Virus record (IMG/VR): IMGVR_UViG_3300043444_000140
Coordinates: 1 to 64,000 of that record
DNA length: 64,000 bases
DNA from: a virus
Strand: one strand, 5' to 3'
The translations under genes and the position numbers were made by a program. Of the stretch, positions 6,205-26,513 are shown one piece after another. The notes under the pieces were generated by a model, which saw nothing but the letters and a program-made list of their open reading frames with translations, made no database searches and was not told the DNA's origin. Numbering within the stretch: position 1 is the stretch's first letter; the number at the start of each line of letters is the position of its first letter.

Positions 6205-6205
6205 A

Positions 6206-7985: not shown

Positions 7986-8176
7986 AAGCCTTTCCGCTTG
8001 GACGAGAGTCGTTACGAGCACCTTTAACTTTTTTAGCCATACACAAATTATACCATAAACCAGGAGGGTATCATGGGAAGAATCATTGACATAGACGAAC
8101 TAATAGAAGAAGAACAGCCAGAGGAAGAACAACATCCACCAAAGATCTTTCGAGACATTGCACAGGCGGAATAGAC

Positions 8177-8374
8177 ATGGCAGGTAAGATAATCAAGATA
8201 GGCAATCCACACTACTGTGAGAAGCCTGATCTGTATAAATGGAGAAATCGTAAACTGCTAGAGGGAACTCAATGGCAGTGCGATGACTGCAACGATATCT
8301 ACGAGATAAAGAATAGTTACTATGCAGGATTCCATTGGGTAAAAATTTCGGGGAATTTAGAAGATGCTTCATAA
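8177..8374 (+). CDS. Small Zn-binding protein
   Basis: HxC...CxxC; last rightward gene before the non-coding block. Confidence 0.5.
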   Translation: MAGKIIKIGNPHYCEKPDLYKWRNRKLLEGTQWQCDDCNDIYEIKNSYYAGFHWVKISGNLEDAS

Positions 8375-9210
8375 TCCCTAGTATAAAATAAACCTAGTAG
8401 AAAGAATACACTTATATGGAATACATTGCTTTGGCTTTGATTGTTTTTGTATGTGCCTTTATAGGTTCATATCTGAGATAGTTATACACAGGATTTTGTC
8501 CAGAAATATCCCTGATTTCACAGAGTTATTAACAAGTTGCTAACAAGTTATCCACATAGTTATACACAGATTTATCCACAGAAATAGGGGAGTTATCCAC
8601 AAGTAAATCTTACTGATAATGATCGTCAATAGCGATATGAGAGATTTGGATATTGTTATTGGGTAATGGAGCCCATCATTAACAGGCTTCGTAATCATTT
8701 TCTCCCCAAATCCCCCTATCCAAATACCCAAATACCCCTATCACACATATCCAGATTTGTCAAGTATGCATAATATCCCTGATTTGTCAAGTCTTTTAGC
8801 CAAATTGTTATAAATCTTATTGATAATTATTTTCATTAACATCCCACAAATGTGGAAAAATATAGATGTTTCGTAATCTTTTTTATGAAAACATATCCAC
8901 ATTTTGGGGAAAAATAAATGACCATCGTAATGTCTTTATACTAGGGGTGTATTATATACTAGGGAGGATTCTTATCAAGAGATGTTATCCGTACCCTGGC
9001 TTCGCCAGCCCTTCGGGGGTATATAAAGAATGATCCCAATATCCCTAGTATAACAAATACCCTATATACAAATACAGCGTAGCCAGATATCCCTGATTTG
9101 GGGAAAAATAAACAGTGATCGTAATCTTTTTTTGATACTTGACAAATTGGGGAAAATATGATAGGGTTCGTAATCCCAATTTCGGGGAAAAATATTTAGA
9201 GGATCGTAAT
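8350..9210 (+). repeat. Non-coding block with six GGGG-N16-CRTAAT-type units plus ATATCC(C)TGATTT and TATACTAGGG repeats
   Basis: Units start at 8350, 8852, 8906, 9100, 9149, 9184; TATACTAGGG direct at ~8937, ~8955 and inverted at ~8376, ~9043. Confidence 0.8.
8482..8601 (+). promoter_or_regulatory. Cluster of co-oriented DnaA boxes
   Basis: TTATCCACA at 8548, 8572, 8593; TTATACACA at 8482, 8560; degenerate copies at 8526, 8537; 11-12 bp periodicity. Confidence 0.8.
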
Positions 9211-9292
9211 GATATTGTTATAAAAGATACTTGACATTTGGGATTTGGTGGATCGACCCACAGGGATCCCCCATGAGGGGACCACCTGATGT

Positions 9293-9577
9293 TTATTTAT
9301 ATAGTTCGTTATGGTCGCTAATGAGTCTGTCTTCTGTGATTCCAAAATGCTCACAGACATCATCAAATAGTTGGTCAATGATTTCTATTCCACGCTCTGT
9401 TGGTGTAGCGTATCCAACATAGACAGATAGAGCCATAGCGAAACTATCCTTGGTGTCTGGGTCTTCATAGAAATCTAGAAAGGCTGACCAATCGCTGTCG
9501 TCTTCATCACGATAGTCCATATGAATGTATGCGAGTATCTTTATCTTATTAGCAAGGGGAGTCTGTGTCATCTTCAT
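9293..9577 (-). CDS. Hypothetical protein, paralog of 9590..9862
   Basis: Alignable TP..K..IL....DYR.D..F; TTGACA-N17-GATAAT promoter, leaderless. Confidence 0.65.
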   Translation of the reverse strand: MKMTQTPLANKIKILAYIHMDYRDEDDSDWSAFLDFYEDPDTKDSFAMALSVYVGYATPTERGIEIIDQLFDDVCEHFGITEDRLISDHNELYK

Positions 9578-9589
9578 ACTACTATTATC

Positions 9590-9862
9590 TCACGCTCCGT
9601 CTTGTATGTCAAGTACATCATCTACCGTTTCGAATCCTGTGTCTTCCCTGTTCAATCCTGCTAGTAGAAGGTCAAACGCCTCATTGATAAAATTCTCTGA
9701 GAGAGCAGTCTTTTCAATGATCCCCTCGTATGTCGCATATGCCAGCGGTAGCCCTAGGTCAGCGTATTGGAAGAAATCCTGAAACTCTTCGTCCTGTCTG
9801 TAGTCTAGCCATAGTTCGGATAGAATGCTACATCTAGTAGTAAATGGTGTCTTGTCGCTCAT
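9590..9862 (-). CDS. Hypothetical protein
   Basis: GAGGA RBS; paralog of downstream gene. Confidence 0.65.
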   Translation of the reverse strand: MSDKTPFTTRCSILSELWLDYRQDEEFQDFFQYADLGLPLAYATYEGIIEKTALSENFINEAFDLLLAGLNREDTGFETVDDVLDIQDGA

Positions 9863-10049
9863 TGGTCAGTTCCTCTTCTTTCTCTGCCTGTGCTGCTTCC
9901 GCAATCATCATAAAGCGGTTGTAGATTACGGTTGGTGCTATTCGTGCTAGATAAATGCCTACTCTGTCTAAGTCAATCGTTAGGTGTCCAATCAGTTTGG
10001 TTATCGCATTTACAATCTTTTCTTCGTCTGTGGTTATTCTTCGTCTCAT
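9834..10049 (-). CDS. Hypothetical protein
   Basis: TTGACT-N17-TACAAT promoter, AGGA RBS. Confidence 0.6.
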   Translation of the reverse strand: MRRRITTDEEKIVNAITKLIGHLTIDLDRVGIYLARIAPTVIYNRFMMIAEAAQAEKEEELTNERQDTIYY

Positions 10050-10093
10050 TTGGTTTCCTATTCAGTTATACCGTTCCATTGTATCAAAAGTAA

Positions 10094-10210
10094 GGGGGCA
10101 AGTCAAGAGTAAGAAAGGTAACTCCTAACCTGCCCCCTGTGTAGTACGATAGTCAACCCCTTAACTATTTCCGTACTACTCTCCCTAGGAGCAATGCTCA
10201 ACCAGGGAAG
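10094..10210 (-). ncRNA. Three consecutive stem-loops (candidate structured 3'-UTR or sRNA)
   Basis: AGGGGGCA/TGCCCCCT, GTAGTACG/CGTACTAC, TCCCT/AGGGA stems. Confidence 0.45.
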
Positions 10211-10219
10211 TCTATTAAG

Positions 10220-10576
10220 TTAATCTTTGTACTTGGGGAATGATTCTAAGTATTGTTTAATACTGTCTGGCATTACGTCCCAATAATCCTTGAGGTACCC
10301 AGACATGCCGTACCATGCATCCCCACCTTCAAAGTACTCGTCGTTGTTGAGTCCTAGTGCACGAATTTCTTCAGCAGTCAACGATCGTGCCTCGCTAGCC
10401 TCCTCGTGTCCTGCATTCTCGTATGTGTACACGTGAATCATCCATGAGGTTGGGTCGTAGTACCATTCTCCAGTACGTGGGTCCTCCTCCTCACGCATGA
10501 AGATGTTAAGGTCGTAGTCGTACTCGGTCCTGCCTGCATTCCTGTTACGCAATGATGTCTGCATTGTCTTCTCCAT
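10220..10576 (-). CDS. Hypothetical acidic protein
   Basis: ORF in leftward operon; start probably at the second Met. Confidence 0.6.
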   Translation of the reverse strand: MEKTMQTSLRNRNAGRTEYDYDLNIFMREEEDPRTGEWYYDPTSWMIHVYTYENAGHEEASEARSLTAEEIRALGLNNDEYFEGGDAWYGMSGYLKDYWDVMPDSIKQYLESFPKYKD

Positions 10577-10973
10577 AAATCGCTTTCAAATCTTCAACAG
10601 TATCAATAGGGATGTTGATGTCTCCGTACTCACATTCGGTACAGTCTGGGTTACCGTCTTCAAAGCCCTCTTCGTCTGTACAGTCACAACGACGAGCACA
10701 CCAAGTAGGAACCTCTGTCCACTCGTCTTCCCAAGGGTTCTCGGTAATGTAGTAATGGATACGGTTTACGAAATGATAACCAGCGACAATGTAAGTACCC
10801 TCGTCGCCGTCTACCTCTGTCCAGATGTTCCTGTTGTCTGCTTTCTGAACGAACTCAAACTCCTCGCCATAAGTCTCAAAGTGAATAAGGCTGTCATCTG
10901 GATACTTGCTAATCTTGTTCTTGATTGGCTTGAAGGTATCTACCCAAGCGTCGTAGGTATAAAACTTGCTCAT
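10545..10973 (-). CDS. Hypothetical protein with C-terminal Cys motif
   Basis: CDC...CxxC; purine-rich RBS. Confidence 0.65.
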   Translation of the reverse strand: MSKFYTYDAWVDTFKPIKNKISKYPDDSLIHFETYGEEFEFVQKADNRNIWTEVDGDEGTYIVAGYHFVNRIHYYITENPWEDEWTEVPTWCARRCDCTDEEGFEDGNPDCTECEYGDINIPIDTVEDLKAIYGEDNADIIA

Positions 10974-10986
10974 TGGGGTCTCTCTC

Positions 10987-11523
10987 TTAGAAGTGGAAGT
11001 CTACAGGTACAAGATACCATACATCTGGGTTCTTGTCAATATCTTCAAGAAGATATTTCGTATTAGTACTTTGGTTGTCCATGTCAAAGAAGTAAGAGTT
11101 GAAATCCCATTCTCCATACGCCATGTCAATAACCTTCTTCAACTCATAGAGTTTCTGGAAGTGTTCAAAGTTCATCTGGTGTGGGTTATAGTCACTGATT
11201 ACCTTATCAATGATAGAGATATCTGTATGCTCAACATAGCGGTCAAACTCTGCCTTACGGCTTTCCATTGCTAGGTTGATACGCTCTACGAACTTATCCT
11301 TATCAGTACCAGCATGGATAATCATATTGGTCTTGCCCTCGGTATATGCCTCGGAAAAGTCATCGCTCTCACCTACATTCCAACGTCCGCCACCTACGAC
11401 AAACCAATCAAACCAACCACTCTGGTAGTCTGGGTTCAACATGTCATCAAGGTTGCTTCCGACGGTACGGTAAGCCTCGTCAACGTCATCTGCCTGTACA
11501 GCAATCCATTGTAATACGTGCAT
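10987..11523 (-). CDS. Hypothetical protein (FDWFVVGGGRW...LVPVDFH type)
   Basis: TTGACA-N17-TAAAAT promoter, AGAAAG RBS. Confidence 0.7.
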   Translation of the reverse strand: MHVLQWIAVQADDVDEAYRTVGSNLDDMLNPDYQSGWFDWFVVGGGRWNVGESDDFSEAYTEGKTNMIIHAGTDKDKFVERINLAMESRKAEFDRYVEHTDISIIDKVISDYNPHQMNFEHFQKLYELKKVIDMAYGEWDFNSYFFDMDNQSTNTKYLLEDIDKNPDVWYLVPVDFHF

Positions 11524-11555
11524 GGGGTTTCTTTCTCTAAGGGTTATACTCTATT

Positions 11556-12110
11556 TTACAGGATAGCGTTAGCGTTGTCAACTACCTCACGCAAATCAAG
11601 ATCTAGTCTTGCTCGGACAAACCCCTGTAGGTATTCCTCATGGGTAGGTAGTTTGTCTAGTGGGAACTCTACAGTTACCCCACCATGCTGACTAATAAAC
11701 TTATTAGTGTGGTAGTCTACAGTATAGACACCCTCACAGAATAGGTCGTCATTCTCAAACTCACGCTCGTCTACAAGTGGAACAGTTCCAGCAGACCAGC
11801 GAACTACGTTTAGGATGTCGCCACAAGTATCTCTACTAAAACTAGGAAGCATAGAAGAAAACTTCTTCAAGTGCGTAGTTTCGGGGTAGCGAGTATTGTA
11901 GTCATTATAGATAACTTCTCTATCAGTATCAGAGATAAAGTAACACTTGTCTAGTGCCAACTCCAACTCTTCTACAGCATAGCGGTCAGTAGTAAGGATA
12001 GATAGAATCTTGACACCCTGTCCCTCTGGATAGTGGTCCCATTGTCCGTATTGTGCTACTTTTAGGATGTTGTCTTTGTCAATTACTTTAGTTAGTCCAC
12101 GAGTTCCCAT
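11556..12110 (-). CDS. Hypothetical protein (MGTRG...QYGQWDHYPEG)
   Basis: AGAAAGG RBS before MGTRG at 12110. Confidence 0.7.
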   Translation of the reverse strand: MGTRGLTKVIDKDNILKVAQYGQWDHYPEGQGVKILSILTTDRYAVEELELALDKCYFISDTDREVIYNDYNTRYPETTHLKKFSSMLPSFSRDTCGDILNVVRWSAGTVPLVDEREFENDDLFCEGVYTVDYHTNKFISQHGGVTVEFPLDKLPTHEEYLQGFVRARLDLDLREVVDNANAIL

Positions 12111-12242
12111 TTGGGAAATCCTTTCTATTGGGGTTTGATACATCAATTATCTCAAATTTTGGGGAAAAAGTCAATAGGTTCGTAAAGGTATTTTGATCTT
12201 TATTTATATTATGTAAGGCTGATCGACCCCGAAGGGTCCCTG

Positions 12243-13366
12243 TTACAGGAATTCGAATGGGTCGGTATCACCGAAGTAGTCTTCGAAGTCTGCTAGGCTA
12301 GGGATGTTCTCCCCACCAAACAAATCATTCCAAACACTACCACCCTGACCATCTGCGTTCATCTCCTGACGCTCGTAGATGTCAAATGCGATTGGCTCAC
12401 TCATAGGTTTCCTCCTCAATTGGTGCGAACATCTGCTGTGCTCTGCGGTATGTCTTGTAGTCCCAAGTCTTTACGATTTCCCAGATACGTTCCATAGCAG
12501 CCTCTTGCTCTGCCAGTTTCTGCTCAATGGTTTCCATACTTTATCTTCCTATTCATCTTCTTGAACCAATTGTCATTTGCCATAGCCTCAATCCTATCAA
12601 ACTTGTCAATCATCTCTGAGAGGATATCTCGGTAGTAGTATGCCTGTTGCTGGTGAGTATAGTTCATATACTCTTCGTGTGCCTCGTTGCTAGCCATACT
12701 AGCATACTTAGCAATCCTTTTACTCTTCATCTTCATCTCCAAAGAAGTCAGCCCAGACATCTGTCTCCGTGACTCCGTCGCCATAGACTTCATCACGCAT
12801 ATATTCTAGGATATACTTTGCTCCCTCATTGAAAGCGTCTTGTTTTATTTTATCTAGTTCATTCATAGTATCTATTGTATCCTTACCTACTGACATTTAT
12901 TGTGTCCGATTCGTTTGTAGTAACTCTTCCATGTTTTGTAGCATTCCGTGCATTGGTATAAATCATAAGCAAGATCAGTTTTAATCTTCCTGGTTCGTAT
13001 CATTCATCATCCTTAGATAGTTCGTTGCCTGTTCGTGTTCCCATGGTTGGCAGGTTGGGCAATACTCTTGTTCTGCCTCGCAAATGTCGCAGAACGGATT
13101 ACAATCAAATGCTCCCTCGTGTCGGGGGCATACGATAGATTCGTGTTCAGTATTTAGGCATAGCATTAGCAAGAACCGTCATTTGGAATCTGGTCTTCTG
13201 GCACACCCATCATACGCAATACTGATTGGCTTCTTCCGATAAGACCCTCTAGGTAATCACCAAAGTTATCGTTGATGTCAAGACCCTCTTTCTCTTTTAT
13301 GAAAACCTTAGTATCCATAATTAGATAATCTATAATCTGTTGATTTGTCATTGGCTTGTCAGTCAT
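12243..13366 (-). other. Cluster of small leftward ORFs (e.g. 12243..12404, 12397..12537, 12981..13172, 13166..13366)
   Basis: Coupled starts/stops, RBSs, AATGTC-class promoters at 12892 and 13408. Confidence 0.55.
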
Positions 13367-13379
13367 TGTGGTTCCTTTC

Positions 13380-13796
13380 CTATGCGTCTATTGTATCTGA
13401 TACCACGGACATTGATTGGTCATACCCTCTAGCATAGTTCTGCCATAGAGCAAGGTTGTTCTCAAGGCGGTCTCCGAATACCCTCACAAAGTCAGCAAGG
13501 TCAATAGTCTTGTCAGAGATTAGAGGCTTCAGTTCCTCAATGGTGATGTCTTGGTATCCGCTGTTGAATTGACCTGCGTGGTAGTTTACAGGCACAAGTC
13601 CCTTGTCATCAGCAAACCAGCCAACGCCCTCGGAAACCACGGTAGCCAAACCATTCTTACCATTCACTACTACCATAGGTTCAGCAGTAATCTCTGTATC
13701 CTGATTAGAATAACGACTCTTGATAAGAGTAGCAGTCTTCTCTGGGTCTAGTAGGTGAACAATAGTTCCTTTTACACGGTTTTCATATCTTGACAT
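13380..13796 (-). CDS. Hypothetical protein
   Basis: AAAGGAG RBS, promoter at 13841. Confidence 0.7.
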   Translation of the reverse strand: MSRYENRVKGTIVHLLDPEKTATLIKSRYSNQDTEITAEPMVVVNGKNGLATVVSEGVGWFADDKGLVPVNYHAGQFNSGYQDITIEELKPLISDKTIDLADFVRVFGDRLENNLALWQNYARGYDQSMSVVSDTIDA

Positions 13797-14015
13797 TTTG
13801 TCTCCTTTGGGGTTGTGTATCTATTATACGGATACCCTCCGACATTTATAGGTAGCGACACGCCAGAAACTGGGAAAAATATCTGATCTTCGTAATTGAT
13901 TTTTAAATGATTGTATATCTTATTTGCATCGACACATCCCCTGGATCTTGTCAAGTCCCAAATTGGGATAAAGAAAAACCCTCACCGTTTCCAGTGAGGG
14001 CTAATCATTTTTGCT

Positions 14016-15032
14016 TTACGCCATTACGACAGACTGAACAATCTTCATCAGGCGGTTCTTCTCAGCGTTGATTACAGGGTCAAAGCCAGAAGCCGAAGCA
14101 TAAATGCTTTCGTTGTTTCCGCCACGAGAGTTGCGATACCAGTCTAGGCGTTCGGTTAGAGCGTTGTATGCTCCCCAAGCAGTTCCTGAAATGGTGTTGT
14201 TGAATTGTCCAACATAAATGTCGTTGAGCAAGTCAATCTTGCTGTCATACTTCTTGACAGAACCCTTAGCATCTTTTTCTGGGGCAGGGTAGGCAAGTTC
14301 AACAATCTTGTCAAAGTCAGCCTTAGTGATTTCTTTTTCAATCATAGCGTTAGCCATAAGTGAGAACTCGTCAATGTAAGTCTTAGCCAAGCCAAGAGCC
14401 TCACGAGCAACCGCAATCTTACCCTCAGCAGTCTGAGTGTGTCGGATTTTGAAAGTTTGCTTGACAGACTTCTTGCCCTTGAAAGCAGATAGAGCAAGGT
14501 TGAGAGTGTTAGCACAAACAACACGAACAGGCGTGATACTTGCCTGAATAGCAATAGAGCCATCGTGGCTAGTGTTGATTAGCAGGTAGTTGTCAATCTT
14601 GTCAGCACGACCATTAGGGTCTAGGGTAATGCTGTCTTGTAGAGCGATAGAGCCAAACACGACACGACCGTTCTTGATAGAGCCAGCAGTTTCCCAACGA
14701 CCGCCACCGTCTAGCAGGTTGTCACCAAATGAGAACAAGTCCTCGTTCTGAAGTGGAACATAACGCTCACCAACAACGCCAAGAACATCATTCTGGCTAC
14801 GGTCAAATGGGTTAGTTCGGGTAACGAATGAGTAAGACTTGTCAGATGAAAAGCCGTCTGGCAATGATACGTCCTCAAGGCGAACATTCCAATCGTTCAA
14901 GTGAGCAAGCGACAACATCTCGCTAGTGTTTACCTCGTTCTCGAATACGGTTCCGAGGTTGTGCCAAGCAGGCTGGCGGAGAGAAGCGAAAGCAACTTCG
15001 CCGTTCTGTCCGATTTCTAGGTCGTGAGCCAT
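14016..15032 (-). CDS. DUF932 / TIGR03299-family protein
   Basis: PAWHNLG, LGVVGERYVPLQN, ETAGS, SHDGS, TPVRVVCANT, IRHT, GTAWGAYNA motifs; AGAAAGG RBS; terminator at ~13977-14000. Confidence 0.9.
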   Translation of the reverse strand: MAHDLEIGQNGEVAFASLRQPAWHNLGTVFENEVNTSEMLSLAHLNDWNVRLEDVSLPDGFSSDKSYSFVTRTNPFDRSQNDVLGVVGERYVPLQNEDLFSFGDNLLDGGGRWETAGSIKNGRVVFGSIALQDSITLDPNGRADKIDNYLLINTSHDGSIAIQASITPVRVVCANTLNLALSAFKGKKSVKQTFKIRHTQTAEGKIAVAREALGLAKTYIDEFSLMANAMIEKEITKADFDKIVELAYPAPEKDAKGSVKKYDSKIDLLNDIYVGQFNNTISGTAWGAYNALTERLDWYRNSRGGNNESIYASASGFDPVINAEKNRLMKIVQSVVMA

Positions 15033-15182
15033 AAGGTTCACCTTTCTGTTAGTGGGGATTTCTGATAAGTCTATTATCCCAAATAAACATAAGTTTGTCA
15101 ATACTATTTGGGAAAAACTTTTGGCGTGTCGTAAACCCGATCTTAATCCAATGTCAGGGGCTGGGGGTCGATCCCCGAAGGG

Positions 15183-15213
15183 AGGCAGTTTACGTAGACA
15201 TGCCTAGGTCGTT
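15183..15213 (-). ncRNA. H-type pseudoknot copy 1
   Basis: GAC CU AGGCA U GUC UACGU AAAC UGCCU. Confidence 0.55.
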
Positions 15214-15244
15214 TGCACAGGGGGTAAAGAAAGGTTAAGAACCC

Positions 15245-15670
15245 CTATGCATCCTTACTCCAGATAATGTCGGTCTGGAAGTCACTGATAGTGCTGTGGG
15301 TAACCTCAAAGTCAAAGTCCCACTCTGGGTCTGGTTCCTCGCCAATCTCGTACTCAACATCAATGGTGAAGGTAACATTAACCTCAACCTGCTTGGTCTT
15401 GGTTAGTTCAACGCCCAACTGCTCCGCAATGTACTTGACAGTGTCCTCGTCGTGGTCCTCAAGTGCCTCAACAAGTACAGTCTTGACTTTGGCTTCGTAT
15501 GCCCACTTCTCATTGCGAATGCGGTTGATAGTTTCAATACGTTGTGAATCTAGTTCAAGACCCTTCGCAACTTTTGATTCAAGGTCAGCAATCTTCTCGT
15601 TCAACTGCTGTAGTACAGGGTGGGTGTTAGGGACGTAGTCGCCAACAGTTCCAGTAATCATTTCATCCAT
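15245..15670 (-). CDS. Hypothetical coiled-coil/acidic protein
   Basis: Promoter at 15718, AGAAAG RBS. Confidence 0.7.
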   Translation of the reverse strand: MDEMITGTVGDYVPNTHPVLQQLNEKIADLESKVAKGLELDSQRIETINRIRNEKWAYEAKVKTVLVEALEDHDEDTVKYIAEQLGVELTKTKQVEVNVTFTIDVEYEIGEEPDPEWDFDFEVTHSTISDFQTDIIWSKDA

Positions 15671-15721
15671 GGGTTCTTCTTTCTTTTGGTTAGGGTCTAA
15701 TTATACAGTGGGGGTCAGACA

Positions 15722-15949
15722 TTATGGCTTGTAGTCTAGAAGAATGTCTTGTGGGACTTCTCTGCCATACTCCCAGATAAGGCTCTCGTCAGCCCAATCG
15801 CCCTCGTCGCTAGGGTTGCCGTCTTCGTCTAGGTATCCCCATTCCTTAGCAATCTCTTCGGGTAGGTCATCAGTGTCAAGAACAAATAGTGAACGCTTGG
15901 TCTCAAAACGCCACCAGTCGCCATTCTCGTTTGCGATAAAAATTGCCAT
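15722..15949 (-). CDS. Hypothetical acidic protein
   Basis: AGAAAGGA RBS before MAIFIA; promoter at 15996. Confidence 0.65.
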   Translation of the reverse strand: MAIFIANENGDWWRFETKRSLFVLDTDDLPEEIAKEWGYLDEDGNPSDEGDWADESLIWEYGREVPQDILLDYKP

Positions 15950-16109
15950 TAGTTGTTCCTTTCTTTGCGATGTATCTATTATGCCATAGCCCTCCGACAT
16001 TTTGGGGATTTCGTAAGGTGTGTCGTAATTGAAATCGTCGATACCACCAGGATCATCGACCCCGAACCACCACAAAAGTCAAGCCTGGTTTTTGACTAAT
16101 GTGGTGTGG

Positions 16110-16139
16110 TGAGCCGTTTAGACACTTGCTCAGGTGTTT
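16110..16139 (-). ncRNA. H-type pseudoknot copy 2
   Basis: ACAC CU GAGCA A GUGU CU AAAC GGCUC. Confidence 0.55.
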
Positions 16140-16157
16140 AGGCGTAAGCCTATGGTT

Positions 16158-16607
16158 TTACAGCAAGTCCATTACAGACGAGTAGGTAGAAGCATTTACT
16201 TCTTCCTGCTGGGTCAGTTTGAGAACACGCAAGGTCTTCTCCAACATCTCCAAAGGTGTCGCATACTCACGACCAAATGAACGGCGAGAGTTCTGGTCTT
16301 CTGGCTTCTTTGGTGCGTCAGGGAAACCAAGTGCTACTCGGTCAATGCGAACATCAACAGAGTTGTTGTAGTCATTAGCAGACACACGAATAGGGTTGTC
16401 GTAGTTGTCGCCAACCAACTCAGGGTTCTCGGTTAGAGCCTTGATAGTTAGAGCAACAAGAGACTTCTTGTATGCGTTGTGGTCTGCTTCATACTGCTTT
16501 ACCAAAGCAGGGTAGTTAGCGGTTGCTTCCTTGATACCAGCAATCTTCTCTTCTACAAGAGCGATTAGAGATGCGGTTGGAACTTTTACAGCCAATGAAC
16601 GAGCCAT
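16158..16607 (-). CDS. Hypothetical protein
   Basis: Promoter at 16668, AGAAAG RBS. Confidence 0.75.
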   Translation of the reverse strand: MARSLAVKVPTASLIALVEEKIAGIKEATANYPALVKQYEADHNAYKKSLVALTIKALTENPELVGDNYDNPIRVSANDYNNSVDVRIDRVALGFPDAPKKPEDQNSRRSFGREYATPLEMLEKTLRVLKLTQQEEVNASTYSSVMDLL

Positions 16608-16752
16608 TAGTTTTCTTCTTTCTTTTAGGGGTTGTTTTGTTATGTGTCTATTGTAGCAATAGCCACCGACATTATACGATTACTCAGGGGCAAGCATTTC
16701 TAGAATACCTACCTCCAAGCAAAAGGGATTAGTTAGACATTTCCATAGTGTG

Positions 16753-16789
16753 TGAGCAGTTTTTTCACAAAGACATACTCAGGTCTTTT
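16753..16789 (-). ncRNA. H-type pseudoknot copy 3
   Basis: AAAGAC CU GAGUA U GUCUUU GUGAAA AAAC UGCUC. Confidence 0.55.
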
Positions 16790-16805
16790 GCCTACTGAAA
16801 GGCTA

Positions 16806-16961
16806 TTACTTTACAGTAGTCCAGCGGTCTTGACCATTTACATCAAGACGAACACGGAACGAACCTGTCTTGTTTGCGATTACTTCCTGAACGATACCAA
16901 CGATACCTGCTCGCTGAGTGGTGAACTGCGAGCCAACAGTAGGGGCGATTACATTTGCCAT
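16806..16961 (-). CDS. 51-aa beta-rich protein (not in ORF track)
   Basis: MANVIAPTVGSQFTTQRAGIVG...RWTTVK; AAAGGA RBS; TTGACT-N17-GAAAAT promoter. Confidence 0.65.
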   Translation of the reverse strand: MANVIAPTVGSQFTTQRAGIVGIVQEVIANKTGSFRVRLDVNGQDRWTTVK

Positions 16962-17302
16962 TTATTGCTTCCTTTGTTTGTAGTTATTATCAACTTTTGC
17001 TGATACTCTATTTTCCCATAGTTGGAAGTGAAAGTCAAGCATTTTCTCAATCTTTTTGTAAAAAGTTTTTATTTATTTCTTGCTCATTTCCAACTACTAA
17101 TAGTATAAGGGTAGCCTCCGACATTTTAGGGATTTGGCACGGCGTGTCGTAAAAAGATCTCGTAAGGTGTTCTAATGTCGGGGGTGGGGGTCGATCCCCT
17201 TTCGGGGTAGGTGATCAGTTATTGCTCAATAATAAACCAGATTATGATAGCGACTATGATTATTCCTATTGCAGTTTCCATACTCTATTATCCCATATCC
17301 CC

Positions 17303-18022
17303 CTACTTTTTACTAGCACTGAATAAAATGTCGTTGCGAGCAAACACACACTGCGAGCAAGCAACACAAGCAGAACCGTTAGTTGAAATCAAAGGCAACT
17401 TGCGATTGTTTTCAGGGCAGGGGATAGCAGACTTATCCTGAATAGTTTTGAAATCTGCCTTGCCTGTAGCAAAGTCTTTAGCAAGATAAGCCAACTTCAC
17501 GTCATACTGTTGCTTCAACTCAAAGCCCAATTCCTTGTTTGCTTCATCAGTTGAAAAGTAAAGTGATAGGTTGTCAATGTTGTTTAGCAACGGAATGGCA
17601 AAATCGCTTCGGGTGTATGCCCAAAATTGAACGGTAGAGTGTTTGCGAATAACATCTGCCCACGCATTAGTGTAATCAACGTTAAAGAAATCGCCGTCCC
17701 AGTGAATACGGAACAACTTTTCGGCATTACGCTTGTCACACTCGGCAACAAATTCGGTAATCATCTCGTCAATGAGGTTATACATCGTTAGGTAATCAGC
17801 GTCTTTGACTTGGTCCCAATTCTTAGTCAACACTTCACGAACGCCCTTGAATACTCGCTCAAGGTTTCCAGCGTAGCAAATCTTTTCACATACTGTGGTT
17901 GCTCCAGGGCATGAGTAAGCCTTACCACTAGGCAAGCCAAAAGTGTTAGCCATACTCGCTTGAGTGCCAGACTTGTTTACTTGGTTTGCTACCTTACGGT
18001 CTTTGCTCCTGATAAGTGCCAT
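17303..18022 (-). CDS. gp88-family (radical-SAM-like Cys motif) protein
   Basis: FGLP...CPGAT..C..ICYA, FRIHWDGDF, FWAYTRS, C-terminal CP...CxxCxxC. Confidence 0.75.
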   Translation of the reverse strand: MALIRSKDRKVANQVNKSGTQASMANTFGLPSGKAYSCPGATTVCEKICYAGNLERVFKGVREVLTKNWDQVKDADYLTMYNLIDEMITEFVAECDKRNAEKLFRIHWDGDFFNVDYTNAWADVIRKHSTVQFWAYTRSDFAIPLLNNIDNLSLYFSTDEANKELGFELKQQYDVKLAYLAKDFATGKADFKTIQDKSAIPCPENNRKLPLISTNGSACVACSQCVFARNDILFSASKK

Positions 18023-18141
18023 TGGGGTCTGCCTTTCTTAGTAGTTCTATTTTACAACTGACCACCGACATTTTGGGGATATTCTTAATCGTGTCGTAAA
18101 TTGATCTTGCACGGAGGGGGTCGACCCCGAAGGGGAGAGGA

Positions 18142-18462
18142 TTACTCCTCGTCCTCCTCGTAGTCGTCAACTAGCCAAGCGTCAAGGTGAGCGTGTTCAA
18201 TAACTGCCCAAGCAGGTGCGTGGTCTGAACCATCACGCCACCTAATCTGGAATGGCTCTCCGTTGCGGTCTACTCCGTCAAACGGTAGTTTGATTAGACG
18301 GTTAGTGTCGTCTTCCCAATAAGCGTCAATAGCCTCAACACAAACTGGAATCATCGCCTGTGGAATTGGTGGATAGTGATTAGCCGATAGGTGAATTGAT
18401 AGTTGTTGCTCTAGCGTAACGTCAAGGTTAGTTGCTAGGTCTAGTGCGGTCATTGCTCCCAT
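18142..18462 (-). CDS. Hypothetical protein
   Basis: HL..NHYPP motif; RBS and promoter at 18511. Confidence 0.7.
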   Translation of the reverse strand: MGAMTALDLATNLDVTLEQQLSIHLSANHYPPIPQAMIPVCVEAIDAYWEDDTNRLIKLPFDGVDRNGEPFQIRWRDGSDHAPAWAVIEHAHLDAWLVDDYEEDEE

Positions 18463-18515
18463 GGTGTTGCCTTTCTTTTGTTTGATAAGTCTATTTTACT
18501 TCAAGCCTCAGACAT

Positions 18516-18959
18516 TTAGTCTTCGTCTTCTTGTGCGTCATCGTAGCAGTCACGACACATCTCGTCATCGTAGACATCGTCATCGCCACACTTCTCGCAA
18601 CGCTCTGTCTGACAGTCCCATCCATCGCAACTTTCTTCGCCACATTCAAGGCACTCGTCAAACTCCCTAGCACCTTGCTCAATCAAAGTTTCAAAGCCCT
18701 CGTTAGGGTCAATACCCTCGGCGGTAGTGGAAACGGCTTCAACAAACTTCAAGCCACAACTCTCGGCATACCAGTGCTTGATAGTTTCATACATCTCACC
18801 AGCAGACATCTCGTCTTTGGTGTATAGAGGGTCATACTCATATTCACGCATTTTGACAACTTGTTCGTCATCCATCAAGACATAGATTTTGTGGCAGGTA
18901 TCAAAGGCAATAGCCTTAGCGTCTTCCATCTTGTCCCAGACTAGTCCCCAGTCAATCAT
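18516..18959 (-). CDS. Hypothetical protein with C-terminal Zn-finger repeats
   Basis: Several CxxC; AAGGAG RBS. Confidence 0.7.
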   Translation of the reverse strand: MIDWGLVWDKMEDAKAIAFDTCHKIYVLMDDEQVVKMREYEYDPLYTKDEMSAGEMYETIKHWYAESCGLKFVEAVSTTAEGIDPNEGFETLIEQGAREFDECLECGEESCDGWDCQTERCEKCGDDDVYDDEMCRDCYDDAQEDED

Positions 18960-19144
18960 TAGTTGCTCTCCTTGTTGTCTAGAATGTCTGCTACTTCATT
19001 TACGCCATCAACTTTGCCAACGGCATAGGCATAGTCAAAGATTTGACGGAAATTTACAATTGTGTAAATAGAAACATCGTGCTTCTCTGCCAACTCCTGA
19101 ATAGGGTTGTAGTAGTTCCAAAACTCTTGCTCTCGCTTGTCCAT
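18959..19144 (-). CDS. Hypothetical protein
   Basis: AGAAAGGA RBS, promoter at 19187. Confidence 0.65.
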   Translation of the reverse strand: MDKREQEFWNYYNPIQELAEKHDVSIYTIVNFRQIFDYAYAVGKVDGVNEVADILDNKESN

Positions 19145-21704
19145 AGTTATCCTTTCTTAGATACTTACATTATAGGGTGAGCCACCGACATTATAGGTGC
19201 TCGGCGATAGCCTTACGCTTGTTAGACTGACGGCTACCCTTGCGAGTAGCAGGTGTTTCTACTAGGTGTGGTGATAGCATTAGCGAACGGAATAGTTCGG
19301 CTGAGTGTGCCTTGCGGATAGCGTTGTTGATTTTGCTCATTGGCTTCTTTGTTTTCTTCATAGGATTATTATACAGGACACCTCAGACATTTAGGGGATT
19401 TGTTTCGGCGTGTCTTAATTTGATTCGTAAATGATTGGGCAGGAGGGGGAGGGTCGATCCCCGAAGGGATGGGACTAGAAGTCATCTCCATAGTAGCCGT
19501 AGTCCTCGTCAGTTCCCCAACCAGCAGAGGCTAGGGCATCGCCATCCATCCAGTCGCCATCCTCCTCAAAGGTGTCCTCCACCTCTGGGCAGTCGTTCTG
19601 GTCGTGTCCGCAGCAAGGGTAGTCTTCGCACATAGTTTTCCTTTCGTTGATAAAGCAATACTAACAGACGCTACCGACATTTTGGGGAAGATCTTTAGCG
19701 TGTCTTAATTTGATCTGGATCCTGGATCGGATCGACCCCGAAGGGTCTAGAATGGTGGAGCGTTGTCTGCTTCGCCCTGGCGGTATCCCCAGGTCTTGCC
19801 TAGGCGGTATGCGAAATAAACCAACACAATGTCAATCAAAAGATTGAAGCCGTTATAGAACATCATCAGTATCCTGCTTTCTCAAAAATTGCCAGTAGTT
19901 CTTCAAGGGTTGATTCTGGTAAAGCGTCAATCGCTTCTTCGTTGATTACATTCTCAAACATTTTCTTCAACTGCCTTTCTCTGGTAGTAGTCAATCCAAG
20001 AAACGATTTCTTCTCTTGGAACCATTCCCCAAACCATAGCGTCAAGGTATGATTGGAAATAAGGTGAGCGTTCGTCAACAGCGTCTTCGGCAGGGGTGTT
20101 GCGGTTGTAGTGAGCAAGGGCAAGAGCCTTGAATTGCTGTTCTAGTTCATACTTGTTCATTGTATGCCTTTCTTTGTTTGATAAGACTATTATAGAGTGA
20201 GCCACCGACATTTATTTTTCGGGGATTACAAAATGCTCATAAGCAAACTCAACATACTCTTTGTGGTAAAAGGTATCAAAAATAGTTAGCAGGTTGCCAA
20301 TACGGAATAGGCGAGGGTCGCCGTTAGGGTCATCAGTGCTTCCCGAGATACCTGCCAACTCAATTTCTTTCATTAGGTCTAGGATTTCGGTTTTTAGTGC
20401 TTCTAGTTTTTCGTTCATAGGATAATTATACAGACAGCCACCGACATTGATTGGCAAGACACGCCGATCTTTTGGGAAATTTTTTGGGAGATTTTTAATG
20501 CGGTACGTAAAGTCCATGGCAGGCGGTCGATCCGATCATCGACCCGATCCACCGACATTTGTCAAGTCGGTTTCTCGGCGTGTCGCTAGAACGGCGGTTG
20601 CAAACTTTCGTTTTCTTCTTCTAGTTCCCGAATGTTTTTTAGCAACACTACAACGGTAGCAGTTAGGCTTAGAACCATTACCAAACTAGCGAGAGCGAAG
20701 ATTGAGAAAATCAAAAATGTTTCGTTCATTAGTTGCCTGCCTTGTCTGCGAATACTGCGTCAATAAAACGCTGGTGAGAAAATCTTGGGTTGTCGTTCTC
20801 AAACATCTGTGCGAACTTGTCCGCAATGTCTGCGAGAATGATGAAGTCAATTTCATCAACCTTGCTGTTTAGAATGTTTGCGGTTTCTACGTAGTCTTTG
20901 CGTGTCATCATTTTTCTGTCCTTTGCTTGTTTTTGATTTTATTTTACTTTATGCCACAGACATTTTGTGGTCTGCGGTAAAGGTGAAGTAGCCCTCAAAG
21001 CGTGGGCTTGGGATTTTGTGAAGAAACTCTGGCTTGTCCCAAATGTTCTTGGCAATCAAGCCGAGTTCGCCACAAGTTGGGCAAGGGGTTAGTTCGTTAT
21101 CTGGATACATTTTCATTTCCTGTTCTTTGTTTGTTAGTTCTATCTTAGGGGAAGCCACCGACATTTTAGCGGTAGCCGTGTCCTAGGTAGTCTGCCCATT
21201 CGTTAGGGTCAAGTTCTAGGTAAGTGATAGCAGAACCCAAAGGCATCAAGCCCTTGTAGTCATTACACTCGTGGCAGACAAAAGTTCCGTTCTCGAAAAC
21301 GGTCTCACAAAATACACACATTAGTTTCATAGTTTTCCTTTCTTGATAATTCTATTTTAGACTAAGCCACCGACATTTAGACTTTGCCACCCATTGACTT
21401 GACTACTCGCATTAGCAAAGTGAGTTCACGCTCAAACTTTGGGTCTAGGTCTTGGTCAGCGTCAAGGGTAGCCATAGCAATTTCCACCATAGCGTTGTAT
21501 TCTGCTTGGAGGGTTGGGAGGTCCATTGGAGTCTTGTTCATTAGTTTACCTTTCTTTCTACTCTTATTATGGCATAGCCCACCGACATTTTAAGGACATT
21601 TTGGGGTGTTTTGGAAAAGATTAACTAGGTTAACATTTCCTGTGAATTTGATCGTTTTTGCATCTCGGGCGTGTCGGGGATCCGATCTTAAGCGTCTTAA
21701 AAAG

Positions 21705-21725
21705 TTATCCACAGAGTTATCCACA
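21705..21725 (+). promoter_or_regulatory. Pair of perfect DnaA boxes
   Basis: TTATCCACA at 21705 and 21717. Confidence 0.75.
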
Positions 21726-22227
21726 GGATCGACACAGATCCAGGCGGATGTCAAGACGACACGCCGATTAGCAGTGGATTTCTAGAATCTCTGCTATCTC
21801 TGAGGCGGTACGAGCGTACACCTCTTCATTACACTCAGGGCAGTAGCCTGAGTAGAAGCGGTCATCCCAGTGTAGAGGGACAATCTGACCATTGGTTAGT
21901 GAAACAATCATTCTGTTTCCTTTCTTTTATCTTGTTATTATCTTAGCATTAGGGGCGGACACTCGGTTAGTTTTTTGCTAACCAAGCAACGCAACCTTCG
22001 CAGGTCTTTACATTTTCTTCATAGATGTTGCCTTCGCAAACATCGCAGTGAGTGAACGGAATGTATAGAACCTTTCCGTTGTAGTATACCTTTTTTCCTT
22101 TTTTTAGTTCAGTCATTTTGACTTCCTTTCTTTTATCTATATATATCTAAACACATACCACCGACATTGTCAACCCGACACGCCGTGTTTTGGGGGAAAT
22201 TTTTTAAGCGTTATAAATCTGTTATAT

Positions 22228-22243
22228 TCGAACATCTGTTCGG
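22228..22243. promoter_or_regulatory. LexA (SOS) box
   Basis: TCGAAC-ATCT-GTTCGG vs actinobacterial TCGAAC-N4-GTTCGA. Confidence 0.7.
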
Positions 22244-23868
22244 ATCATCGACGCACTCGGGCGTGTCGGATCTCGGGCGTGTCGCTAACGTGTCTTGGTT
22301 AGCATTAGGGTCAAGTAGCGGTCCTGATTTTCTTTTGATAGCGTTGCCCAAGCCTTGCGGTCAAGGTAACGCTGTCCATTGCGAATTTCAGGGGTAGCGA
22401 ATACGATAGCGTTAGCCCAAGCCATGAAAGCCTTTTCGCTTCGGGTCATTCTTGCTTTTCTCATTAGTTAGCCTTTCTTAGTAGTTTTATTTTAGCCTAG
22501 CCCACCGACATTAATCAAGGGGCTTGCGTAGTCCTTGTTCCAGGAAGCGGTCAAAGTGCATTTTCTTTTCTGCCATAGCAGATACAAACTTTACACCGTT
22601 AGCCTTAGCGAAGAAGTCAATTGCAGGGTGTCCATACCAAGCAACCTGCACACCACGATAGACAGTGCCGTCCTCGGTCTTACCCGATACTACCCATTCA
22701 ATTCCTTTTGACATTAGTTGTCCTTTCTTTCTATTACTAACTTAGCAGGTGCTACCGACATTTATTAGATGTCGCAACCAATGCTAGCGTGGCAGTAGAT
22801 ACAAACCTCTTCGCCACAGCGTCCGCATTCGTCCTGTGGAGTGTGAGTATCGCAGATGTCGCAGTAGCCTAGGTCTTCTGCGTAGTATTCTTTTTGAGTG
22901 TTCATCTTGAACCTTTCTTTCTTTATCTACTATTACATTAGCACCCCCCACCGACATTTAAGTGTAAGACACGCCAATAAAATGGGGAAATTTATAACGT
23001 TCTTATAACGCCCCTGGATCCCTTATAAACAAAGGGCTGTAGAGGGGATCGACCCCCTTTCGGGGATCTTGTCAAGTCCTTACATCAACTTGTCTAGTAG
23101 GCGAGAAAACTGAGGGTAGAAAGCAAGGATTACAGCAAGCACAAAGCCAATCTGTGAACCAATAAAAAAGGTTTCACTAATTGTTTGGCTAGGCTCTGCC
23201 CCTAGCAGTAGCAGGGTAAGGTATAGGAACACATACGCACCAGCAACAAACGGAATAGATACAATGCCAAGGATTGCTCTACGGATTACATACTTCATTA
23301 TTATTTCCCTTCTTGTGAAAAGTCTACATCATCAATGAGCATTATGTCAATAAGCCCAATTAGGTATTCTAGTTCTTGAGTGTCCATTATTGATTAATTA
23401 AGATTACTAACGTTATAGCAATTATAAGCAGGGCTACAGACATTTAGATGATAGCCCATCCTGTTATCTGTCCTTTTTCATACATAGACTTGTAGAACTT
23501 TAGGACCTCTGCCTTGTGCTGTGGGTCATATGAGGGGTAGATTGTGGTACCGTCCTTGAGGATGATTTCTAGGTTCATGAGTGTTACCTTTCTTAGTTGT
23601 TATTAGTGTACAGTAGGGGTCAGACATTGAGTCTAGTGAATCTCACCATACTCTGACCAGCAGATTTCACAACCATACTCGCCAGCCTCCTTTACGAAGA
23701 CCTTTTCTACTACTACATCACATAGTTCACAAACTGAAAACATTTGTTACCTTTCTTTCTTTTATCTATTTATCTTTATATATATATCTAACCATAGACC
23801 ACTGACAAAGTCAAGACGACACGCCGATGATCTGGGAAATATTTTAACCCGTTATAAGATCGTTATAT

Positions 23869-23884
23869 TAGAACAAATGTTCGA
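23869..23884. promoter_or_regulatory. LexA (SOS) box between divergent promoters
   Basis: TAGAAC-AAAT-GTTCGA. Confidence 0.7.
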
Positions 23885-23988
23885 ATGCGTCGATGTCGTT
23901 ATCAATTCGTTATCAAACAATGGCGTGTCGCTATACAAATGTCTGTCGGGTGTGCTAATGTATTTATATCAAGAGATAAGGACAGAAG

Positions 23989-24255
23989 ATGTTTGTAGCA
24001 GAGATTTTCAACGTAGTAGTTGTAGAAGAAGTAGAAGATGGCGAAGTGTATGAATACACTCGCATTGAAGATGATTTCTCAATGTTTTTCGACATCAAGG
24101 CAGATGCAGAGATGTGGCTTGCAACTGCACCACAAACTGAAAAGCACCTAATGGAAGTGCAAAGCACTTGCGGTTGCCTAGAAGATGGCGACAAGGTTGA
24201 ATTGGTTATGAACTTTGGCGACCACGCTGTTGCTTACTGCCACCCTTGCTCATAG
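23989..24255 (+). CDS. Hypothetical acidic protein
   Basis: Rightward AATGTC promoter at 23938, AAGGA RBS. Confidence 0.65.
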   Translation: MFVAEIFNVVVVEEVEDGEVYEYTRIEDDFSMFFDIKADAEMWLATAPQTEKHLMEVQSTCGCLEDGDKVELVMNFGDHAVAYCHPCS

Positions 24256-24308
24256 GCAATTGTCGGCGGTATCAACTAAAATAAAAGCAATTAGAGATAG
24301 GAAATAGA

Positions 24309-24398
24309 ATGAACGGATACACTTATGACGAGCAGTTTGACACTAGCGACAGCACTTGCCCAGACTGCTACAAGTCTTATTCGCAATGCGATTGCTAG
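24309..24398 (+). CDS. 29-aa Zn-finger micropeptide
   Basis: MNGYTYDEQFDTSDSTCPDCYKSYSQCDC; own promoter and AGGA RBS. Confidence 0.55.
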   Translation: MNGYTYDEQFDTSDSTCPDCYKSYSQCDC

Positions 24399-24581
24399 GG
24401 GGCACTACCCCTATCAGTCTTTTTATTCTTGATGGGGGCACCAGGGGATCCCTGATCACTTGACAATGTGTGCTCACTATGTTATTATGTTATATTTTTG
24501 TAGAGCCTGTATCATACATCTTTACAAAATATTCAGATTTTTGTCAATTTGAAAATTTTTTCAGATTTGCCAGATATGAAT

Positions 24582-24608
24582 GTAACATTTTGGTAACGAT
24601 TTGGTTAA
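24582..24608 (+). promoter_or_regulatory. 11-bp-period RTAAC direct repeats (MtrA/GlnR-type box)
   Basis: GTAACATT-TTG-GTAACGAT-TTG-GTTAA. Confidence 0.5.
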
Positions 24609-24712
24609 TTTTCTATATTTGTATCACTACACTGATACATTTATAGCATTTGCGTAAGATTTGCATACATTCGGCGGTACACTGTAAACAATTTGTACGC
24701 TATAATATAGTT

Positions 24713-24787
24713 ATGAGCATCCAAGAAGTCCCAACAGACATTAAAAAAGAATGCAAGTGTGAAAACTGTAACTGTAGAAACAACTAG
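24713..24787 (+). CDS. Metallothionein-like micropeptide 1 (24 aa)
   Basis: MSIQEVPTDIKKECKCENCNCRNN; TATAAT-6nt-ATG. Confidence 0.55.
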   Translation: MSIQEVPTDIKKECKCENCNCRNN

Positions 24788-24800
24788 GAGGTGTCTTGAT

Positions 24801-24872
24801 ATGTGCGATAACGTAAACTGCTCTATGGGAGAATCTTGCAAGTGTGAAAACTGCAAGTGCGGTAAGAACTAA
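24801..24872 (+). CDS. Metallothionein-like micropeptide 2 (23 aa, 6 Cys)
   Basis: MCDNVNCSMGESCKCENCKCGKN; AGGAGGTG RBS. Confidence 0.6.
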   Translation: MCDNVNCSMGESCKCENCKCGKN

Positions 24873-25994: not shown

Positions 25995-26022
25995 TTTAAA
26001 AGCCCTTTATAATTAAAATACT

Positions 26023-26488: not shown

Positions 26489-26513
26489 AATCAAAATATG
26501 ATATAATTTTATT

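Follow-up and report, generated by a model that had tools for sequence, protein, structure and literature searches.

Promoter cassettes with phased DnaA-, LexA- and OmpR-type sites in a predicted early block of an uncultured virus with Streptomyces phage kin

Early blocks of comparable phages

Phage SPO1 carries many tiny early genes of unknown function in its long terminal repeat, and all or nearly all of them are individually provided with a strong promoter and a ribosome site (PMC6873191), and the small terminal-repeat genes of BE1-type phages follow the same host-takeover pattern (PMC5764925). The start-up programme of large virulent phages of Actinobacteria is little known, and the stretch described here may offer a conserved cis-regulatory code for it. 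The DNA analysed, referred to as the window, comprises the first 64,000 nucleotides (~42% G+C) of IMG/VR virus record IMGVR_UViG_3300043444_000140, which is 107,035 bp long and rated 99% complete. Our subject is its predicted early region and the intergenic spacers within it. In the open reading frame (ORF) maps 9293–25994 is occupied nearly throughout by small minus-strand ORFs, with ~22 predicted promoters and 17 AGAAAGG sites in the coding orientation, so that the dense small-gene array with many promoters and strong ribosome sites known from SPO1 is found here as well. SPO1 differs in that its early promoters are canonical sigma-A promoters, and the terminal repeat of the present virus is only suggested by synteny. 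A sequence-only reading of the window had regarded about 15 spacers as a catalogue of host DNA-binding sites acting as decoy, sensor or DNA-entry system. Modular and conserved sites of consensus type are indeed present; however, most of the grammar shared by the spacers consists of hairpin, promoter and ribosome site.

A nucleotide search of the early region against 50,697 phage records returned zero matches, and relatives of the region were found through proteins only. By protein comparison the nearest cultured kin are the Streptomyces cluster-BE phages (Stanwilliamsviridae), with 47–49% identity in the portal. The DUF932 protein of 361 amino acids encoded at 14016–15101 is 56% identical to its cluster-BE homologue. 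In cluster-BE phages the DUF932 gene is located 1.2–2.4 kb from the genome end and is found in two copies per record, which places it in the ~11-kb direct terminal repeat of these phages. Phage Peebs shares with the window a homologous DUF932 protein (56%) and a cassette layout of stop codon, tetraloop hairpin, TGTCSGG, -10 element and ribosome site. In the Peebs terminal repeat TGTC precedes TAGACT or TAGAGT by exactly 12 nt at six places on the coding strand and at none on the other. Peebs differs in being without DnaA boxes, SOS boxes, the 8-mer GACACGCC and the 11-bp repeats that are described below. The TGTC-N12-TAnnnT core is common to the cultured Streptomyces BE phages, which makes it testable at the bench. 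For comparison, 62 relative loci totalling ~1 Mb were retrieved from uncultured viral contigs with the DUF932 protein (54–92% identity), and the spacer vocabulary picked out by the sequence-only reading recurs in them. A WhiB-family protein is encoded at 98416–98589 of the record (50.6 bits, over the cut-off). An actinobacterial host is plausible despite the low G+C content because of this phage WhiB and the kinship with Streptomyces phages.

The DnaA boxes of phage T5 are described, in the part of a preprint devoted to them, as 'always' paired, with a 3-bp gap, in untranslated terminal-repeat DNA, and an injection stop has been proposed (bioRxiv 10.1101/866236); the same section makes no mention of LexA. 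The T5 genome (NC_005859) contains at 6182–6228 a DnaA pair with a 3-bp gap and a perfect E. coli LexA box 10 nt on, and an inverted copy of the DnaA pair and LexA box is located at 9411–9518, inside the annotated injection-stop region. The features in common with T5 are a virulent phage, a long terminal repeat (here presumed) with leftward early genes, paired DnaA boxes in non-coding DNA and, in relatives of the present virus, a host-type LexA box alongside. In contrast, the two belong to unrelated families with hosts of different phyla, the LexA box is here of the actinobacterial/Gram-positive type, the boxes also occur upstream of single promoters in helical phase, and the large array lies at the presumed outer end. 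The DnaA/LexA composite stands side by side in T5 and in two of the relatives (L007 and L018), whereas the window has its parts in neighbouring spacers. Built on the LexA consensus of the phage's own presumed host, the actinophage composite appears to be convergent with that of T5.

The predicted early promoter class and the sites upstream of it

The block is probably, though by no means certainly, an early host-takeover region of a lytic actinophage, expressed leftward from promoter cassettes with phased host-factor inputs. The window contains 20 copies of the promoter core AATGTCKG-N10-TAnnnT (19 minus-strand, one plus-strand), compared with 0.11 expected from dinucleotide shuffles of the window, which provide all the motif expectations given for it. 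The same class can be written AATGTCGGTGG-N7-TAnAAT or AATGTCKG(TGG)-N7-TAnnnT and usually has no -35 element. The consensus of 25 sites is AAATGTCGGTGGc-N6-TAnAATA, and the gap between the box and the -10 element is fixed at 10 nt. Each of the 19 minus-strand promoters identified by pattern scan at 13823–23628 is followed by AGAAAGG and a small ORF, and about three extra copies on this strand have CATAAT or TTAGAT at -10 (~15976–16000, 21566–21593 and 22141–22167). The 62 relatives contain the class 283 times on the gene strand and 23 times on the opposite strand, and 83% of 577 gene-strand cores carry TAnnnT in the -10 slot. Among the 348 non-redundant promoter contexts from the relatives, no more than 8% carry TTGAC at -35. 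In the promoters of the DUF932 orthologues TTGACA is followed by TGTCGGTGG within the 17-nt spacer and then by TAAAAT; the TGTCGGTGG box sits where the 17-nt spacer of a sigma-70-type promoter would be.

The spacer motifs named by the sequence-only reading exist at the places it gave and exceed the shuffles, and hardly any of the vocabulary shared by its 15 spacers turns up in 300 random windows of 260 nt taken elsewhere in the genome. The spacer at 24450 is the weakest of the 15 and is actually a plus-strand unit. The spacers at 22141–22285 and 23781–23932, described as near-paralogous, align with 76% column identity. The grammar had been read on the plus strand, which did not hold, as the spacers resolve on the coding (minus) strand into ordinary gene-expression signals in the order stop codon, CCCC-TTCG-GGGG/GTCGATC element, upstream zone, promoter, AGAAAGG and ATG of a tiny ORF. 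Accordingly, the GACATT 'promoter end' is a real element seen on the wrong strand, namely AATGTC of the promoter core in reverse-complemented form. The GGGG-N16-CGTAA motif, taken as a part common to the spacers, does occur, but the region has no more than seven copies, of which four lie within 8906–9209. The tetraloop hairpins are likewise present, but they are short (4–7 bp), and their predicted stability does not exceed that of shuffled controls (z scores of +0.99 to -0.66 for five and -1.6 to -1.7 for two). The single exception is a strong intrinsic terminator on the minus strand downstream of the DUF932 gene, with a stem of 11 bp and a U-tract (13977–14002; -21.7 kcal/mol, z -5.0).

The 8-mer GACACGCC occurs 14 times in the window in both orientations (0.68 expected), always within 13857–23929, and these copies represent 14 of the 15 in the 107-kb genome. 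Its sense-strand form, GGCGTGTC, is positioned 14–18 nt upstream of the core at 13857, 20458, 22177, 22968 and 23818 on the minus strand and at 23922 for the plus-strand promoter. The distances in the relatives are counted from where the promoter core begins, over the 348 non-redundant contexts; GGCGTGTC peaks at 17–18 nt, and 29 of 43 non-redundant cases fall at 16–20 nt. It is absent from most promoters of the class. In the published structure of WhiA and WhiB with the polymerase, WhiA reads GACAC on the template strand upstream of -35, and WhiB connects it with sigma region 4 (PMC10243135). The specificity reported for WhiA covers 5 bases, with sites in either orientation and at no fixed position (PMC3781837). 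The present arrangement may be akin to WhiA/WhiB promoters such as that of sepX in having GACAC just upstream of -35, a WhiB, here phage-encoded, and a putative upstream contact of the type made by the C-terminal domain of the RNA polymerase alpha subunit. The orientation and approximate place of GGCGTGTC would fit a WhiA/WhiB site.

The direct repeat GTTAY-N6-GTTAY occurs six times (0.58 expected), and the relatives contain 190 copies in ~1 Mb. Five of the six are the 11-bp RTAAC/GTTAY repeats that the sequence-only reading had placed at 22210, 22994, 23851, 23898 and 24582 (span 22210–24597), all of which were recovered. The regulators GlnR and AfsQ1 of the OmpR family recognise sites of the GTnAC-n6-GTnAC type. 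The MtrA consensus of S. coelicolor is KTRACC-N5-GTKACN, i.e. two 6-bp repeats 11 bp apart (PMC5650626). The window shows the same 5–6-bp direct repeats with an 11-bp period in promoter phase. It differs in that the GTTAY half-site merges into TTACGA; the repeats match the architecture of OmpR-family sites and not a particular regulator.

The DnaA box TTATCCACA occurs five times (0.77 expected), at 8548, 8572, 8593, 21705 and 21717, and the one-mismatch box TTATACACA is found at 8482 and 8560, giving five perfect and two one-mismatch boxes by the Schaper-Messer 9-mer TTWTNCACA. The two groups of DnaA boxes that had been reported are thus present and enriched. At 8482–8601 five same-orientation boxes on the plus strand, three TTATCCACA and two TTATACACA, form an array with 12- and 21-bp spacing. 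At 21705–21725 a perfect plus-strand pair with a 3-bp gap is enclosed by an inverted GACACGCC pair, ~120–140 nt upstream of the core at 21582–21588. Over 59 relative loci successive boxes are 12 bp apart in 51 cases, 11 bp in 10 and 21 bp in 18, a helical spacing of the array type that would allow cooperative binding. A perfect box is present in 43 of the 59 loci, and TTATCCACA totals 176 in ~1 Mb; the chance expectation in the relatives, estimated from pattern length, is <10 each for TTATCCACA and the 11-bp repeat. The five near-complete relatives have 8, 1, 4, 9 and 12 perfect boxes against 0–1 copies of a reversed control word, and nearly all of these boxes fall in the early region, to which they are confined in four of the five (8, 4, 9 and 12 boxes).

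The SOS-type pattern CGAAC-N4-GTTC occurs three times (0.20 expected), including 22229 and 23871, so that the two LexA-type boxes of the sequence-only reading, near 22228 and 23869, are also present. The first is the palindrome CGAAC-N4-GTTCG at 22229–22242 (16-mer 22227–22242, CCGAAC...GTTCGA). The second, TCGAAC-N4-GTTCT at 23869–23884 (16-mer 23868–23883, TCGAAC...GTTCTA), lies between divergent promoters. Both 16-mers differ from TCGAAC-N4-GTTCGA at one outermost base. The third site, at 13757, is probably due to chance. The perfect 16-mer TCGAAC-N4-GTTCGA is found once in L007 and twice in L018, 22–24 nt from the DnaA pair. The distance from the SOS box to GGCGTGTC is 57–58 nt in both window copies and in L018.

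The upstream sites occupy preferred distances from the core. RTAAC-N6-RTAAC is found at 38, 47–48, 58–59 and 69 nt, GTTAY-N6-GTTAY at 31, 42–43 and 52–54 nt, TTACGA/TTAAGA at 17, 28, 38–41, 49–51, 61 and 73 nt, and the DnaA boxes at 64–66 and 76–77 nt upstream. Such distance ladders of 10–11 bp indicate sites kept on one face of the helix. Several relatives have the fixed order DnaA pair, SOS box 22–24 nt on, 11-bp repeats, GGCGTGTC and promoter. The statement that many sites are not placed like ordinary operators, from which a non-transcriptional role had been argued, is contradicted by these phased positions upstream of ~350 non-redundant promoters. Helical phasing corresponds to the placement of activators or co-regulators and favours a transcriptional role, in which the cassettes would read the state of the host, over a decoy. 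The stoperators of cluster-A mycobacteriophages are also short asymmetric intergenic sites oriented with transcription. Here, in contrast, the site stands 10 nt from the -10 element and so belongs to the promoter itself, and those relatives that are in culture are lytic; stoperators of the cluster-A type were rejected on account of the fixed distance to -10.

The proposed early block would comprise more than 20 mini-cassettes, each starting with a hairpin/GTCGATC element after the previous stop codon, continuing with a regulatory zone and a promoter, and ending in a tiny ORF preceded by a strong ribosome site. In the promoter the TGTCGGTGG box at about -28 to -20 would take the place of the -35 element, with a normal -10 (TAnAAT). 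The upstream elements would follow in helical register, GGCGTGTC at about -46 and TTACGA/GTTAY half-sites at ~-57, -68, -79 and -90, with a T-tract followed by CCCC also in this zone. Host RNA polymerase with the main sigma factor may use the -10 element, and one or more box-bound proteins would stand in for the contact that a -35 element normally provides. At the GACAC-containing 8-mer this could be host WhiA together with a WhiB of host or phage origin, and at the 11-bp repeats an OmpR-type regulator or a phage protein. A search for a phage-encoded DnaA (C-terminal), LexA, OmpR-type (Trans_reg_C) or Lsr2 DNA-binding domain found none, which leaves a host protein or an unrecognised phage protein as the binder of the sites. 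Farther upstream, paired DnaA boxes and/or an SOS box in some cassettes might tie expression to the replication-initiation and DNA-damage state of the host, the upstream slots being filled in different phages by DnaA, LexA and 11-bp-repeat consensus sites. Should binding be confirmed, strictly lytic phages, and not only temperate ones, would be seen to sense host replication and damage.

The sites are real in terms of sequence, strand bias, spacing, phasing and conservation, and from them we infer the protein identities, the timing of expression and the terminal-repeat status. Several observations weigh against the host-takeover interpretation. A generic sigma-70 scan shows no enrichment in the region (35 found against 34.9 expected), and the promoter activity and timing are assigned from the DNA sequence only. 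The weak hairpins are doubtful terminators. GACACGCC is conserved over 8 bases and WhiA specificity covers 5. The SOS boxes lie ~95 nt upstream of the nearest predicted start, whereas in classical LexA repression the box overlaps the promoter, and they occur only in a minority of the relatives. A host search through metagenome bins yielded five mis-binned phage contigs with inconsistent taxon labels, one of them a relative from a lake time series.

The gene-free end and the rival explanations

The ~950-bp convergent gap at 8340–9292 is free of genes and is conserved block by block in six aligned relatives. The blocks begin with the hairpin of the last gene, TTACGA-N9-TATTTTTCCCC repeats, a CTGGC/GCCAG hairpin and more repeats. 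Next come a conserved segment that stops just short of the DnaA array, this array, DNA that varies between relatives and, as the last block, a TTACGA...CCCCGAAA unit. Five same-strand bipartite units TTACGA-N9-TATTTTTCC(CC) occupy 8854–9209 on the minus strand; these are the GGGG-N16-CGTAA motifs of the sequence-only reading and have the shorter spellings TTACGA-N9-TTTTTCCCC and TTACGA-TTTTCCCC. In the relatives the TTACGA-N-TTTCC unit is strongly biased to one strand (184 against 4), and most relatives whose sequence extends over the region have a cluster of two to five DnaA boxes at the same position, right behind the TTACGA repeats. The CTGGC/GCCAG hairpin (8990–9022, minus strand) has a stem that is invariant in the six relatives and a variable loop, and it is without an Rfam match; an Rfam search of 8000–26500 identified no family. 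The last conserved block, a degenerate TTACGA...CCCCGAAA unit on the minus strand at 8340–8392, is where the alignment of the six relatives stops. This block is shared by ~25 relatives, in which the sequences that immediately follow CCCCGAAA-N-TTTT are of at least 12 different kinds, which suggests the boundary near 8340 as a candidate terminal-repeat edge.

In Peebs the right-arm plus-strand genes abut the right terminal repeat, which opens with ~900 nt of non-coding DNA, and four copies of TTTACGA are found in end-proximal non-coding DNA within 700 nt of the physical left end. The 8374/8340 arrangement together with this synteny looks like a collapsed terminal repeat, and suggests that the block is a long terminal repeat, collapsed in the assembled record, that starts near 8340. 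Among the contigs of the relatives none was seen to end exactly at the homology boundary, and many of the 16-mer matches were to unrelated coding sequence. Under the host-takeover interpretation, 8340–9292 would be the conserved outer end of the block and the probable edge of a long direct terminal repeat, marked by the DnaA array and the TTACGA repeats; a separate genome-end role is a candidate function for this array.

A specific form of such a role, in which 8340–9292 would act like the T5 injection-stop region or as the site that terminase recognises and cuts, and not in transcription control, is unlikely. T5-like phages have DnaA pairs in their untranslated terminal repeat, for which a DnaA-dependent pause of injection has been proposed, and the two inverted copies of a DnaA pair with a perfect LexA box were confirmed in T5. 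The conserved order of the end blocks, the sharp end of homology at ~8340 with many flanks and the TTTACGA repeats near the physical left end of Peebs point in the same direction. However, given true synteny with Peebs, the array would mark the outer end of the repeat, unlike the T5 stop signal with its place at the inner end. The T5 model is itself a proposal, none of the relatives' contigs was found to stop at the boundary, and the same motifs also stand upstream of promoters within the block. A replication origin at the five-box array of 8482–8601 is very unlikely. The same-orientation boxes with 12- and 21-bp spacing resemble chromosomal origin arrays, but the adjacent DNA, which is only moderately AT-rich, is not conserved and is almost absent in relative L034, and we rejected an origin at the array on that ground. 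Moreover, identical box pairs precede several early promoters, the site is far from any replication gene recognised in the window, and the section of the T5 preprint that treats the analogous boxes considers an origin unlikely.

The decoy, by which the sites would soak up host regulators as the phage DNA replicates and so block initiation or trigger the SOS response, carries little probability. Sites that match their consensus exactly and are conserved, in a phage without the corresponding DNA-binding domains, are what titration would call for, and the host may be a small freshwater cell with few regulator molecules. Yet titration does not need fixed positions, and the sites are sharply phased and in fixed order. 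There are only seven DnaA-type boxes and two convincing SOS boxes per genome, the SOS boxes are missing in most relatives, and one of the near-complete relatives has no more than one DnaA box. The spacers might instead be recombination cassettes, in which hairpin and promoter repeats serve as homology patches for gene swaps and the other motifs are passengers. T4-type phages have a composite of stem-loop and early promoter (PeSL) that recurs among the small variable genes of a plastic region (PMC4122927), and this precedent (PMC2839356, PMC4122927) is matched here by the order of stem-loop and then promoter. The same modules precede many unrelated tiny ORFs across the relatives, two spacer paralogues are 76% identical, and the gene content of the region varies among relatives. 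However, the sequence is different from that of PeSL, the promoter is -35-less, the hairpins are weak and fold no better than shuffles, and host-factor sites are added. Recombination also leaves room for a regulatory role and does not explain the consensus-perfect DnaA and LexA sites or the phasing; as the primary function of the spacers it is highly improbable.

A broader proposal, which we put forward only tentatively, is that two unrelated families of virulent long-terminal-repeat phages, the T5-like phages of enterobacteria and this Stanwilliamsviridae-like clade of freshwater actinophages, independently placed a phased DnaA pair beside a host-type LexA box in the DNA that is expressed first. 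In the actinophages this composite would be wired, in helical register, to the -35-less promoters with their WhiA-type and response-regulator-type sites, and ahead of commitment to takeover it could either read the replication, damage and cell-cycle state of the host or hold the incoming DNA. The occurrence of the DnaA-pair and LexA composite in T5 as well, a phage with two-step DNA entry, suggests a general role of the two host proteins at the front ends of long-terminal-repeat phage genomes.

Other features of the block and the genome

The distal part of the block, at 9293–13796 on the minus strand, contains packed small genes without Pfam families and canonical promoters of the TTGACA-N17-(G/T)ATAAT type. 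Examples are 9612–9584, 11581–11553 and 12174–12146, and the best sigma-70-type matches are on the minus strand. The use of canonical promoters at 9.3–13.8 kb points to two promoter classes and possibly to two temporal classes.

A plus-strand mini-operon at 23922–24413 is embedded in the minus-strand block; its first promoter belongs to the early class, with GGCGTGTC, core and -10 at 23922, 23938 and 23956, respectively. It comprises an ORF of 88 amino acids at 23989–24255, a second promoter of this class at 24258–24282, an ORF for a 29-residue Cys-rich protein at 24309–24398 and a terminator-like hairpin at 24396–24413. The minus-strand ORFs 23964–24194 and 24343–24477, which overlap the mini-operon, are probably spurious. 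This divergent promoter accounts for at least one of the 'inverted' copies of GACACGCC.

The post-stop element CCC-TTCG-GGGGATCGACCCC is located on the minus strand at 15164–15190, with further copies at ~17187, 18117, 19440–19465 and 23044 and variants at 12215 and 9245–9290; the folding of the element is weak. A functional requirement for the GATC of the spacers was dismissed, as 15 of the 62 relative loci are without any GATC. An orphan TTGACA followed after 16–17 nt by GTCGAT(G/C) in place of a -10 element occurs at five minus-strand sites (23075, 21754, 20565, 16082 and 13954; span 13925–23075). TTGACA-N16/17-GTCGAT has zero further occurrences in the 107 kb and is common only to the closest relative. 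A general class of 'dead promoters' with GTCGATC as the replacement of -10 was discarded because the arrangement is rare in the relatives. Three copies of a CCTRRGYA...AAACNG element follow directly after stop codons on the minus strand (15170–15208, 16100–16134 and 16745–16783, by pattern scan), and this element is a conserved block upstream of the DUF932 gene in the alignment of relatives.

DUF932 and GP88 are the only recognised proteins of the early block among ~45 minus-strand ORFs of 30–361 amino acids. Many of the tiny early ORFs (29–60 amino acids) at 19000–24400 start with or hold CxxC pairs, and families of these CxxC ORFs recur downstream of DnaA/LexA modules in different relatives. 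They may encode zinc-ribbon mini-proteins. Elsewhere in the window no tRNAs were found, and the 1243-residue protein encoded at 39811–43542 on the plus strand, whose gene directly precedes that of the portal, matched none of the PHROG families. At 106579–107035 (L069:1420–1875) an ORF that is cut off by the end of the contig encodes an N-terminal helix-turn-helix of the sigma-70 region-4/LuxR type (Sigma70_r4_2, 27.2 bits; GerE, 24 bits). Its product could be a regulator for GACA-type boxes or a small terminase subunit.

The 4-bp palindromes AGCT, GGCC, CCGG, GCGC and CGCG have zero occurrences in the whole 107-kb genome, compared with 226–399 each expected from base composition, and TCGA and TGCA are present at 0.38 and 1.58 of expectation, respectively. 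The loss varies among the relatives, CCGG being absent from 53 of the 62 loci, CGCG from 48, AGCT from 23 and GATC from 15. This pattern appears to be an extreme, lineage-specific avoidance of restriction sites.

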